This document shows positions 15,479 to 31,300 of a DNA stretch of 64,000 nt, piece by piece. Both the position numbers and the translations under genes were made by a program. The notes beneath the pieces were generated by a model, which did no database searches, was not told where the DNA came from, and saw only the letters and a program-made list of their open reading frames with translations. The stretch is from Raillietiella orientalis (lineage: Eukaryota), in the NCBI GenBank assembly GCA_036172245.1, contig JAYWIR010000006.1, forward strand, positions 372,001-436,000, in the 5' to 3' direction. Positions within the stretch are counted from its first letter, which is position 1; each line of letters begins with the position of its first letter.

Positions 15479-15929
15479 GATTAGGTCAAGCTGAAGGAGG
15501 CGACAGGCTTGCAGAGGATGGACAAGATGGAGATCCTGGCAGGGATGTTTGAAGGGAACGGCAACATTGCTCGATACAATCCATTGGTATGCATCACCAT
15601 CACCCTCTTTATCACAAGCATCGTGGTGAGAAGAGAAAAAATGCGGAGCGGAATAAACAGTGTGCCAGCAGTGGAAATCCTGAAAGGATTAGTGAAAAGG
15701 GAAATTGAGATCAGGAATTGTGGATGGACTCCCACTTGGACGTACTGTTACATCCTGCAAAGGATTCAGGAACCTTGTCAAGTGAGTGAAATCCTCACGC
15801 AGACTCAGTGACTCGATGACCGAAGAGTAACCCTCAAAGTGAAAACTGAAAACCAGTGACTTTACAGAACACTTGCATGATGAATGAATGTTGCAAATAA
15901 GCTCATCCCACCGCAAGTCGAACTGGGGA
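15479..15929 (+). pseudogene. PB2-like EVE, mid region, flanked by an 18-bp direct repeat
   Basis: Ungapped protein match to ~30960-31260 (ILAGMF..RYNP..ITS..RR); AVEILKG (flu AVDICKA). Confidence 0.6.
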
Positions 15930-16169
15930 AAACCTGATAGCAGAATTACTTCTCTCCATACTTATTTTCCTCAAGTTTCGACTTCTTTGAAAAGGTGTTG
16001 CAATGCTACTACCTATGCCTTGCAAACGAATGCAGTCCCATGACGCACTTTCTTATTATGGACTCGAAAAACAGGGAACCTATACGCAAATCCACCGAGT
16101 GAAAGTGTTTGCATTGCATTGGATCTATGTGTTCTAATACGTATAAAACACAAAAGTGCCATGAAATGA

Positions 16170-16660
16170 AGTGGATTGCATAGGAGTTACCCCTGGACTC
16201 AAATTATCGAAGGGGAGCACATCTGAACTCTTTTGTGCATCCAGACTGCTTTCGTTTTCCTTTATTTATGATGGCTGTTCGTGTCATTTATATAAATTTC
16301 AGGATGCAACGCGCAGGAAGTATCTGGGTAAATCTTCCAGAAATGCTTCACTGTTGAAAACAGCACACATCTTGAGAAGAATTCTGGAATGTGTGTTTCT
16401 TTTTCTTTTTAGCGTTTTATTAAATCCAAGAGGAAAAGTACAAACGGTTCTATTTTATTTCAATGAGAAGCCATATACACGTGCTATTTCCAGTCGCAGC
16501 AGGAAAGCAGAGGAATCCATTCTGAAAGATCGGATTTCAAGGACTCTTGCCTCTGCAGCTTTTATGCACTACAGCTTGATACGCATCTTGAAATCACTTC
16601 TTAGTTTTTATTCGTGGTCATCGGTTGTCACAATAAAGTCAACAGTTAAAAGTTTGTGAT
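16170..16660 (-). pseudogene. PB2-like EVE, cap-binding domain
   Basis: IKAAEARVLEIRSFRMDSSAFLLRLEIARVY aligns without gaps to flu [31 protein letters not shown]. Confidence 0.7.
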
Positions 16661-16829
16661 CCTTTCAATTTATTCTTGTTCTTACATTTTGCTCATTTAC
16701 TTCATTCATTTTTTCATCATACATTAGTACTTCATCTACTCATGTACATCACAAATGATGCCAATATCATGTAGAATATTGATAAATTGAATTGTCAAAG
16801 TGCTATTTGAACATCTTTTCATAAGAATG

Positions 16830-17620
16830 AGCACACTTTCCCTTTCAGCGTCATGCACTACTTAATGCTAACGAAGACTTACACCATTGAACCTTTTCTG
16901 ATGGTTTCTTCCTATACATGAGTGCAACGACTCAATACTTTAGGGCATTTAAAAGATGAAAAACCTACGAAAAAGCACAAGTTTCTTTTACGTGTCTGTT
17001 TCAATTGTGATCTAAATATTAAAGAAAGTTGCGGTTGCATCAAACTCCATTGCTTCCTATTCCAAAAATTGCACGAAATTTCTCATTAAATGGCCTAAAA
17101 CTTGTACTATTAAGTCGTCTATTCGGAAGTTTATTCATACTTATCCGAGCTTCATGCCTTCAGAGGTTCATGTTAATGTAAAATATCTAAACTCAGTTCC
17201 TTGAAAGAATTTTCAGTTTTAATTATTAGAAAAGAATGATAGAATTATGATTATTCCATTTATTATCAGTAAAGCATTCTTTGCTTAATGCATGTTCATC
17301 CTCTTTGTAATTCAAGCCAGGAATCGCAAGTGACAGAGCTTTTCACTTTGAACTATGTAAATTCATTTTCCTTCTTCGAAGTAGCTGAATTCAGACACCG
17401 AGATGCGGAAACTAAAATTGATGAAATCAGCTTTCTGCAGATAAGAATTATCTTTAATGTAGCTTCCTGCTAGCTGGCTCAGATCGTATTCATATTGAAG
17501 TTTGGATTCCTGAATTACAGTGTTCTCACAGTGCTGTTATTGAGGGATCAGTTTTTACTTCAAGCAGTTTTACTTCAGTACAGCGGAATTAGCTATACGG
17601 AGATGATGGAACACAGAGAG
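16830..17620 (+). pseudogene. PB2-like EVE, heavily degraded
   Basis: TIEPFLMV, GSLFILIR, NSFSF, LLQYSG in order; weak. Confidence 0.4.
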
Positions 17621-28173: not shown

Positions 28174-28380
28174 GTATGGAGCCTGGAACAACCATCACTT
28201 CGCAAGACTATTGTGAAACGCCTTCAGAACTGCGGTGTGCCACTCAGAACCTATGACGTGAAATGCTGAGATCAGGAATCGTTCCTCTACTTCATGACAA
28301 CGCGCGCCTTGGCAATTCATGCTGTCCGCACATTCCAGGGGATTCAGAAATTCAAATGGGAACTTTTTGATCAACAGGAC
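28143..28380 (+). mobile_element. mariner (Tc1/mariner) transposase fragment
   Basis: WDQKSVLFVDCMEPGTTITSQDYCE...LLHDNAR...FKWELFD, matching the mariner catalytic region; contains a stop and a frameshift. Confidence 0.85.
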
Positions 28381-28389
28381 TCTTCTTCC

Positions 28390-29800
28390 ACCATGTTTGG
28401 AAAACAATGGTGCCTGCGACAGAAAAATGACACGGGGATGTATATGTGTCTGGAAGCGCTAATATTTTCTCTCCTTGTATCCGATCCGCCATTACCCTCG
28501 AAGTGGGCCTCGCATATGCCTGCATTAACCAGAGGACACGCGTGCACCAAAGCTGAAACCGCCATAGCTTCTGGCAATGGAAACTGGGTGCTCTTAGCTA
28601 TAACCGACCGATGCCAACTACTGACCCCCCAAAAAGCGTATAATTCCATGAACCCTCTACTACTGGCTATATAAGAGCCGTTCAATAGAATCTGGAAGCT
28701 TCTGGAATGCGAGTGCTCAAAGACGCAATCATACCATGCCCGCTTCTTTGCACAAAATTCGGACAGAAGAGCTTCCTGTAGGATCTTCAGCTTGATGAGG
28801 TGGCGAGTACCGCAGGATGCTTTGGAATCGCTGCACTACTGAGGCGTCTGCTACGCCGCGTGCTCCAGCAGTGTTTCGCATGCTTCCGCGTTTGGCGTCG
28901 CTTGTACGGCAAGCATTGCCCAGAGCGTAGCTTTCGAACGAAAGGCGATATGAGTGCAGCCTCACCAGGAGAAAGAGTTTGCCGGATAACTGCAGTCACA
29001 TATCCATCTCTGGTCCAAGAACGATGCAGCCTTAACTGGGGAGAAGGGGGGAGGCGAATACCCCCAGATTTCCGTGCAGAATGCTGGAAACGCTGTGCAA
29101 GGACGGGAGGCATTTCCGGAAGACGCTCCTTTGAGCACTCGCAGACTTGCTCACGATGCGTGATGCTCGCCATCGCTTACGAGGCAGAGATGACAGAGAA
29201 ATAAGCTTTTCTTCAAGAAGGGATCTCTGCACAGGGATGACGTATTGTGTGACGTGAAAAATGTATCCGTGCGCGGACGGTCCCTCTGCATCTCCTGCTG
29301 CATGCAACGGGCAGCCGATTTTTGTTTTTACAGAATGTTCTTCCTGAGAGTTCCTGCGCCCGAACATTCAGAGACAACAACATGGACATGATTTTCGAAG
29401 TTCCAGACGTCGCAGGAATCCCATCCCGACCTTGCGTGGAATGCCGACCGGCGGGACAGCCATGCTCGACGCTCCGGTCGGCCGACACCCCACCACCGCC
29501 GTGCGCCGTTTATTCTTCTGAACGTCCCGGAGCGTTGTTTCGGCCGGCATGGAGCGATGGACTGGGAACCGGAGCGGGCAAGAAGAATGCCACTGTGTAA
29601 TTATGGCAAAGCATCGCGATGGTCGTTGCCGGCGTTGACCGGTGCGATTTCTGGTCAGCTCTCTGAACTGCCAAAGAAAAGCGATTCAACCTCGAGCGAG
29701 TGCGTCTCCATAAGGATGCTCGTTGTCCACCTGCACTGGGACACACTGACGGAAATGGCAGACAGACTCTGTGCGCTGTACGCTGCGAATTACTGGAAAC
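28390..29800 (+). pseudogene. PB2-like EVE, C-terminal half
   Basis: LEALIFSLLVS (flu [11 protein letters not shown]), SMNPL, VP..LFLQNVLP matching the 33 kb copy, LSELPK. Confidence 0.6.
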
Positions 29801-30179
29801 ACATTGCGTGGAGCTGCTGCCAAAAAACAACGAATTTTCTAGTTCGGCGTTTGTAGAATAACGTTGTTTTGTTTCCGCCTATGCGCTGCAGACATTATGG
29901 GCACCCATGCTTTGTAGCTACGAGAATGCCGCAGACTTGCCCATTGCCCACACAAAGTGTAAATCGGAACGTAAATAATTCGGAAGTCGCAAAAAGTTCT
30001 TCAGGCAGGAAACGAAAACAAGAGGACCGCAGCTGAAAGGACAACTGCCGTTTGTGCTTACACACTGAGAGCTCTCGCAGGACGAGCGCGGAAGTGAAGC
30101 AGCTGCAGAGGAGGATCGTCTGGAGAGAATTCAAGCTGCGGGTCACGCCCAAATTGCTGTTCGCCCGAGAGAGGGAGGT

Positions 30180-31300
30180 GGGACCGGGATGACGTCGCTA
30201 TGACAGACCATCGACCACGTGGATGCGCGGCAACTCTTGGCTCGCACCACCGAATGGGAACAGTGGCCTTTTGCAGCCCACACATCCTTTTCGAAGATGA
30301 TCAACAGCTCGAGCTGCCTGATGTCGGCGCTCATAAACAAACATGAAGAATGGGGCAGCATGGACCGCACGTAGAAAGCGAAGCAGACACTGGCGGCGAA
30401 CCACGCTTCAAGATCGTGCCTAGAAGCATATAATTGTGGAATGAAGAATTGGCCATAGTTATGGCGCATTTCGTACCGGTAAATCAAAAGACACCTGGAA
30501 GAGCCCACCAGTGACCATCCGTGACTGCGAACAGTCGACAGCCAGTGGCAATTTCCACAAGATGCGACTGCTTTGCCAACGATGAGAGGGAAATTCACCT
30601 GCAAGACGCGAGTGCTTTGGAAATATCAGCCATCCGATGCTTGCATCTTGACGACCAGAGCCAGCATCTGCGGTGTAATGATGGAAAACTACCGAAAAGA
30701 GAACGTGGTTGCCATGGCTGCCAACCGCTACGAGATACGCGGATGGAGAGCCTGCAAGCGATTGGAGATACAGCCTTTCAGAGTGACCTACCACCACAAT
30801 CTGAGGATGACCAGCTCATGTTTTACCGTGGGGGCATCCTAAGTGGAAGCGGATTCAGACATTGGACAGGAAACATCGGCGATGAACTGTGGTGGCAGGG
30901 AAACCCGGATCCACGTCCTCGCCTGCTCGCCGCTGCGCCAGGACCGGAGCACGCTAAAGAGCACGGTGATTGGTCTGCAAAAAACCACAAGAGTACGCAT
31001 TTTAGCCGGAATGTTCGATGGCAGCGCAAACGTTCCGCGATACAATCCTATGGTTCGGACCACAATCACCCTCCTCATCACGAGCGTCGTGATCAGAAGG
31101 GCAAAGATGAGGAACACGATGGCTGCAGCTCCCGCCATCAGCATACTACAGGGGCTGACCGGACGAGAGATAGGGATCAGGAACCGAGGCAGTATATTCT
31201 CCTGAACGTACCGCTACACCTTGAAGAATAGAGTGGACTCTGCCCAAGCGAGTGAACTGCTCTCCAGCCCCCAGAGACTCTACCAAAGAAAAGAACCTCC
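30180..31300 (+). pseudogene. PB2-like EVE, N-terminal half, one frame with several stops
   Basis: WPFAAHTSFSKMI (flu YPITADKRITEMI), GVMMEN..VVA, EIQPFRVTY (flu KISPLMVAY); GxF..PxxAC shared with the 34 kb copy. Confidence 0.65.

Follow-up and report, generated by a model that had tools for sequence, protein, structure and literature searches.

Two homologous coding fragments that diverged under protein-coding constraint in a 64-kb window of the Raillietiella orientalis genome

Two copies of one coding block

The stretch analysed here, referred to as the window, comprises 64,000 nucleotides of the genome of Raillietiella orientalis (GenBank assembly GCA_036172245.1, contig JAYWIR010000006.1, positions 372,001 to 436,000 of the forward strand). 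It harbors two homologous coding sequences, copy A and copy B, located 15 kb apart on the forward strand. In brief, each copy contains a block of 101 codons (15506..15808 in copy A, 30972..31274 in copy B), and copy A is part of a 451-base insert (15479..15929) that is flanked by an 18-base direct repeat. The two copies drifted apart under protein-coding constraint. We tentatively suggest that they are retroposed fragments of a coding mobile RNA. A preliminary description of this locus had labelled them PB2-like, after the polymerase subunit of orthomyxoviruses.

The blocks were delimited by tblastn and codon alignment, and for copy A also as the best of six reading frames. They align without gaps over the 101 codons. 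A tblastn comparison of A with B gave an E-value of 8e-31, 51 of the 101 residues being identical and 70 similar. As copy B has a stop at one codon, 51 of the 100 comparable residues are identical. On the DNA level, 178 of 303 bases (59%) are shared. The eight codon pairs listed in the preliminary description (atc/att, ctg/tta, gca/gcc, ggg/gga, ttt/ttc, ggg/ggc, cca/cct, gta/gtt) are all present in register, and the ungapped alignment of about 90 codons that it reported is borne out, the block being even longer. Its starting pair, 15534 and 30999, is off by one base for copy A and gives 27% identity in that register; the true start in A is 15533.

The frame of copy A is open from 15485 to a stop codon at 15809-15811. 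The only break within the block of either copy is the in-frame stop of copy B at 31203..31205, and the in-frame similarity to copy A goes on past this stop. When a one-codon gap is allowed, the similarity begins near 15491 in A and 30957 in B, and on the DNA level it reaches 15842 and 31307, respectively. In steps of 30 bases, identity is 11-25 of 30 within 15506-15835 and falls to background (4-10 of 30) outside. We found no other collinear homology within 5 kb on either side of A or B. A tblastn search with all 1387 window open reading frames (ORFs) of at least 30 residues revealed no further member of the family. There is no third copy in the window either, as a hidden Markov model of the two copies, with the stop of B written as X, matched A and B alone among the six-frame pieces of at least 15 residues. 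No longer copy of the block was found within the 64 kb.

Divergence under coding constraint

The differences between the copies follow the codon. Of the 101 codons, 64, 74 and 40 are identical at the first, second and third position, respectively, corresponding to 37, 27 and 61 differences (chi-square p = 0.0007). Counting by the method of Nei and Gojobori over 100 codons gave 54.5 differences at 69.8 synonymous sites and 69.5 differences at 230.2 nonsynonymous sites. The proportion of differing synonymous sites (pS) is thus 0.78, which is saturated, and that of nonsynonymous sites (pN) is 0.30, with a corrected distance (dN) of 0.39; in all, 49 of 100 codons encode a changed residue. The resulting pN/pS ratio is 0.39. 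Shuffling the alignment columns gave an average ratio of 0.83, and none of 2000 shuffles gave one equally low. Constraint is not even along the block, with a pN/pS of 0.30 over codons 1-73 and 0.77 over codons 74-101.

A comparison of all six reading frames ranked the forward frame of the preliminary description at the top, with 51 identical residues, 28 synonymous codon changes and a BLOSUM sum of 250. The antisense frame that shares the same wobble position came second (39 identical residues, 19 synonymous changes, BLOSUM sum 170, pN/pS 0.54), and the remaining four frames gave pN/pS values of 0.82-1.47. As a control, we used three other diverged repeat pairs of the window, and their differences are distributed flatly over the three phases (13/14/13, 16/13/15 and 4/4/7). 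One of these is a neutral duplicate, a direct repeat pair at 47879-48037 and 50685-50842, 69% identical over 164 bases, with phases 13/14/13.

Given the pN/pS ratio of 0.39, the saturated synonymous sites and the flat control pairs, divergence while coding is supported. The preliminary description had concluded that the copies diverged as coding sequence and not as neutral DNA duplicates, and the ratio, the shuffles, the ranking of the frames and the control pairs agree with this. It had further stated that the divergence lies mainly at synonymous sites; this holds per site and fails in raw counts, where nonsynonymous differences outnumber synonymous ones. Neutral duplication or chance resemblance has nothing in its favor except the modest base identity of 59%. 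It is refuted by the tblastn E-value and by the codon-position periodicity, together with the shuffles and the non-periodic control pairs, and we consider its probability negligible.

The insert harboring copy A

The insert of copy A lies between a left repeat, AAACCTGACAGCAGAATT (15461..15478, forward strand), and a right repeat, AAACCTGATAGCAGAATT (15930..15947, forward strand), which were found by repeat search and are identical at 17 of 18 positions. The 18-base sequence has no match in the window besides these two at up to three mismatches. When the surrounding 1.8-kb region was shuffled, such a pair spaced 300-700 bases apart arose by chance in 1 of 3000 shuffles. We regard the repeat as a candidate target-site duplication.

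The insert contains the coding block and approximately 118 bases past the stop codon. It has a G+C content (GC) of 0.46 and an observed-to-expected CpG ratio (CpG o/e) of 0.51; the ratios of its two flanks are 1.03 and 0.67, and that of the whole window is 0.87. The insert ends with CTGGGGA, directly followed by the duplication, and an AATAAG motif is located approximately 26 bases ahead of this end.

At the other end, similarity to copy B starts 12 bases inside the edge of the insert. A start codon is not conserved. The ATG codons of copy A at 15518 and 15527 are other codons in copy B, and the sole shared ATG is found inside the conserved block. Among the four codons preceding the first ATG of copy A, three are changed with the residue preserved. 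The lack of a conserved start, together with codon-type conservation close to the edge of the insert, fits a 5'-truncated copy of a longer ORF.

A near-perfect hairpin is located at 15242-15309, 170 bases upstream of the insert. It has 29-base arms that are 90% complementary and a 10-base loop.

The surroundings of copy B

Copy B is part of an ATG-started frame at 30879-31205, and the ATG of this frame lies in sequence without a counterpart in copy A. When the tails (3'), heads (5') and flanks of the two copies were aligned locally, 65, 225, 177 and 186 of 500 shuffles did as well, and RNA folds of the 3' tails of A and B were no better than those of shuffled sequences (z -0.11 to +1.19). We also considered a conserved terminus or a target-site preference, since MAFFT alignments placed GAAAC-type motifs at both ends of A and B. 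Since the alignments of tails, heads and flanks were no better than shuffles, this candidate was dropped.

Copy B lies between two direct repeats of approximately 450 bases, at 27723-28173 and 35746-36185, which are 8 kb apart and enclose a GC-rich stretch (51-62%). The repeats are about 95% identical by blastn and 96-98% identical in ungapped stretches, with an 11-base indel. A long terminal repeat (LTR) retrotransposon reading of the pair was rejected, as the repeats lack TG...CA ends and the sequence between them gave no gag, pol or env domain. Long GC-rich ORFs at 31.9-34.7 kb have flat GC values over the three codon positions and look non-coding.

Searches for relatives of the two copies

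No sequence, profile or pattern search tied copy A or copy B to PB2, to another orthomyxovirus protein or to any other virus, and the PB2-like label of the preliminary description could not be sustained. Pfam was scanned with five sets of 13, 150, 140, 63 and 2 translated frames, some frames being present in several sets; the set of 63 holds frames of 30-89 residues from 28.2-32.6 kb. At E<=1, no Pfam family was found for copy A or for copy B, none for copy B extended upstream through its two stops (written as X) and none for the antisense ORF of copy A. Among the scanned frames, the only matches over curated cut-offs belong to PAN, glutamate-receptor and EMC2/TPR families. Nine further families were found below the cut-offs, with E-values of 0.0015-0.26, and are mutually unrelated. 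One of them is 'Viral family 110', which reached 12.3 bits against a cut-off of 25 in the frame 14656-15039.

The N-terminal, cap-binding and 627 domains of PB2 would be expected upstream of the block. The translated frames upstream of copy B gave no viral family, and copy A ends at the edge of its insert. No virus-like ORF was detected elsewhere among the scanned frames of the window.

Searches of the PDB (177,635 distinct sequences, E<=10, phmmer and a two-sequence profile) gave no match for copy A or for the profile. Copy B and its extended version gave unrelated weak matches alone, to TOG3 and the coxsackievirus-adenovirus receptor, and no polymerase. We take this library to contain the solved PB2 chains. 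A phmmer search against 1.84 billion representative proteins gave one match (E 5.8e-4), to a short low-complexity stretch of a 1071-residue bacterial-type repeat protein, and we regard it as spurious. A word-indexed search of 5.8 billion protein clusters, with 1247 candidates in the longer length class and 29 in the near one, gave no match at E<=0.1. On the nucleotide side, 50 pattern matches in IMG/VR contigs and 166 in JGI metagenome contigs were obtained, and none was confirmed. A degenerate 36-base pattern of the bases common to A and B was absent from metagenome, viral and prokaryote genome contigs. Exact look-up among 15 billion proteins returned none of four queries, namely the three ATG-started ORFs and the EMC2 exon described below.

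An AlphaFold2 model from the two-sequence alignment had a mean pLDDT (predicted local distance difference test) of 45.2 and a predicted template modelling score of 0.28, too poor for fold comparison. In the ESM Atlas, the best matches of copy A, at 0.90, were phage 'hypothetical' clusters, which share 157-163 features with it and carry LAGLIDADG as a minority label, and those of copy B, at 0.87-0.89, were unnamed bacterial clusters. The result for B is inconsistent with that for A, and we take both as chance. The C-termini of hAT (dimerisation domain), GIY-YIG (Penelope) and Tc1/mariner elements, considered by eye, were rejected as there was no Pfam match.

The first part of the block includes a short run that may resemble the beginning of the C-terminal domain of influenza PB2, a likeness that none of the tools confirmed. 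A fragment of 100 residues needs approximately 36 bits to be detected in libraries of this size. Because the fragment is this short and the host clade is thinly sampled, the two copies may, as far as can be read from the searches, still have a very remote relation to PB2.

Neighboring genes and other features of the window

Several genes or parts of genes were recognized in the window by Pfam. A PAN-domain ORF is encoded on the negative strand (7065-9578), and an EMC2 TPR exon (20125-20580) and exons of an ionotropic glutamate receptor (53086-54057 and 57878-58465) are encoded on the positive strand. The best relatives of the EMC2 exon in the collection of 5.8 billion clusters are an unnamed protein (59% identity) and proteins of Limulus polyphemus (58%) and Strigamia maritima (55%). 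These low identities indicate that the host is an invertebrate animal of a clade that is poorly represented in this collection. A tRNA scan and an Rfam search at gathering thresholds over the window gave no match.

The GC content is very uneven, with 34-35% at 16-20 kb round the EMC2 exon and 57-62% at 8-12, 32-34 and 56-58 kb. At third codon positions it is 0.40 in the EMC2 exon and 0.70-0.77 in the PAN and glutamate-receptor exons. The GC-rich parts contain many ORFs of 200-370 codons, which result from composition and are not genes. An inverted repeat of 521 bases, 98% identical, has its arms 59 kb apart near the ends of the window (3229-3749 and 62844-63357). An older inverted pair (3889-4090 and 57146-57344) is 69% identical, and its differences have no codon periodicity. 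A tandem array of a 14-base unit, with about 40 largely perfect copies, is located just downstream of the glutamate-receptor exons (59539-60100), and imperfect palindromes are found at 11508-11859 (132-base arms, 83%) and 48542-49166.

Origin of the two copies

Copies A and B appear to descend from different members of one family, neither deriving from the other. The synonymous divergence between them is saturated, yet the duplication around A is near-perfect, and the insertion of A would therefore be much younger than the split between A and B. Of the two sources offered in the preliminary description, different viruses or active members of a PB2-encoding family, separate active members of a coding family fit for this same reason; the virus and PB2 are not supported.

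Based on these observations, we suggest that A and B were retroposed independently and represent the 3' ends, truncated on the 5' side, of a mobile coding RNA that persisted for a long time, most likely the tail of ORF2 of a non-LTR retrotransposon. We give this a probability of about 0.45. The source RNA family would have been kept under purifying selection in active, transcribed lineages until its synonymous sites were saturated. Target-primed reverse transcription would then have placed 5'-truncated copies of two diverged members at this locus, each with the last 100-110 or so codons of a longer ORF and some 3' untranslated sequence. Copy A would be recent, with an intact frame and an 18-base target-site duplication that is still 17/18 identical. 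Copy B would be older, with one in-frame stop and no clear duplication remaining. The source would be a retrotransposon of the long interspersed nuclear element (LINE) type, and the block a poorly conserved C-terminal tail of ORF2 that carries no Pfam domain. That the insertions involved reverse transcription and 5' truncation, that A is the younger of the two and that the source was a LINE, we infer from the features described above. Target-primed reverse transcription is suggested by the duplication that flanks A together with the 5' truncation and the short length, and a non-LTR retrotransposon is the likeliest source because of its prior frequency. Among the short coding fragments of animal genomes, LINE 3' ends that are heavily 5'-truncated and flanked by target-site duplications are the most common.

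The likeness to such LINE copies extends to the short insert A (451 bases) with its 18-base direct duplication, the frame of A that is open toward the 5' edge, the absence of a start codon conserved between A and B, and the two copies differing in age after diverging under coding constraint before insertion. Several observations weigh against this origin. Truncated LINE copies would be expected to carry a poly(A) or microsatellite tail; the 3' end of insert A lacks both a poly(A) tail and a terminal simple repeat, and no run of A there exceeds 4. No linked reverse transcriptase or endonuclease was found in the window, and the frames scanned with Pfam contain no polymerase, reverse transcriptase, endonuclease, integrase, transposase or other retroelement domain. 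No LINE ORF2 protein matched A or B in the 1.84 billion representatives or the 5.8 billion clusters, and many LINE ORF2 proteins are present in public protein sets. As the relatives of EMC2 are only 55-59% identical, missing matches for the tail of a lineage-specific retrotransposon would not be surprising. No significant flanking duplication was found around copy B, only the 7-mer GGGAAAC at 30898 and 31443, which occurs six times in the window. Just two copies were found in the window. They share one strand at a distance of 15 kb, and the window is otherwise poor in repeats, an arrangement that fits local gene duplication equally well, and their similar short length (approximately 450-540 bases) would be a mild coincidence if the source ORF was long.

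Local duplication is central to another explanation, in which the copies would be small protein genes restricted to the host lineage, an old family whose products, of about 100 residues, have basic residues after a hydrophobic helix. In that case, B would represent an ancient paralog that arose locally and is possibly in decay, and A would have been retrocopied recently from a different member. Both copies do have ATG-started frames of approximately 100 codons (15518-15811 and 30879-31205), that of A with a purine at -3 and a G at +4. The strong constraint over the first 73 codons, the same strand and the 15-kb spacing typical of tandem paralogs also agree with such genes. An alignable ORF without alignable surroundings is seen in very old duplicates, and the lack of homologues in the protein collections searched is as for orphan genes. 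The start codons are, however, non-homologous, the ATG of B having no counterpart in A, and codon-type conservation extends upstream of the ATG of A. Copy B has a premature stop with in-frame similarity beyond it, none of the three ATG-started ORFs is among the recorded predicted proteins, and the AlphaFold model is poor (pLDDT 45). A functional host gene pair would be expressed and have a conserved start and intact frames, and A and B share neither a start nor an intact frame. We consider this explanation unlikely. Retrocopies as such are known, and PMC2987831 cites Esnault et al. (2000) for processed pseudogenes and retrogenes being LINE-mediated. Copy A resembles these in its flanking duplication, its intron-less coding block with approximately 118 untranslated bases and the AATAAG near its end. 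It differs in having no poly(A) tail and no known parent gene, and in that the start is not conserved between A and B. If the copies were homologous exons, belonging to one or two host genes with several exons, this would account for an AG ahead of the block of copy A (15495-15496 or 15504-15505) and for GTGAGT at 15782, where the 12 bases around the site are identical to copy B at 11 positions. The matching donor position of B is GC, though, and not GT, and in-frame similarity continues for approximately 60 bases beyond the candidate donor (34 of 61 identical, with a background near 25%). Within 5 kb on either side there is no further homologous exon in collinear order, the EMC2 gene stands between the copies, and the 18-base duplication around A would be left unexplained. 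Spliced exons are thus a highly improbable source.

Endogenous viral elements (EVEs) are the explanation closest to the preliminary description. Here, the same gene from two diverged RNA viruses, an orthomyxovirus-like PB2 or another gene, would have been reverse-transcribed by host retroelements. Viral donors would agree with copies that diverged while coding and were inserted at different times. The repeat around A is consistent with the LINE-mediated capture of viral mRNA that is described for mammalian EVEs (PMC2987831). EVEs of orthomyxovirus origin are recorded in the tick Ixodes scapularis (PMC2987831) and in the firefly Photinus pyralis (PMC6191289), and the present host is likewise an invertebrate. 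Like these, A and B are isolated coding fragments that may have been captured by host retroelements. Known EVEs, in contrast, were recognized by significant similarity to viral proteins, and A and B have none. There is no Pfam family at E<=1 for A, B or B read through its two stops, and no polymerase chain of the PDB at E<=10, by sequence or by the two-sequence profile. The sole match among 1.84 billion representatives is spurious, viral and metagenome contigs gave none, and the window contains no other virus-like ORF. For insect EVEs, moreover, PMC2987831 describes target-site duplications as not apparent. It is also unlikely a priori that two viruses so deeply diverged would each have left the same gene end within 15 kb of the other, and we regard a viral origin of this kind as improbable. 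On a bolder view, to which we attach little probability, the block would be the C-terminal domain of a protein from an undescribed virus or mobile-element lineage of the under-sampled invertebrate clade. It could then belong to an orthomyxo-like polymerase subunit of extreme divergence that was captured two times from different viruses, and the intact-frame copy A could be a recently acquired and possibly expressed gene for a small membrane-type protein.

Implications

The two copies are best filed as retroposed coding fragments, which are a known kind of element, with a source gene that is not matched to any recorded family. The evidence of the preliminary description that was independent of any reference, namely differences on third codon positions, was sound, and it set A and B apart from the three neutral pairs of repeats that the window also contains. 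PB2, the family name that was attached to them, failed every search, and such labels should not be carried forward. As it stands, the locus would be nothing out of the ordinary for an animal genome, with a pair of fragments of a mobile coding sequence in decay. Should whole-genome data tie the fragments to a virus, they would, if this were true, constitute a new EVE from a poorly sampled invertebrate lineage.

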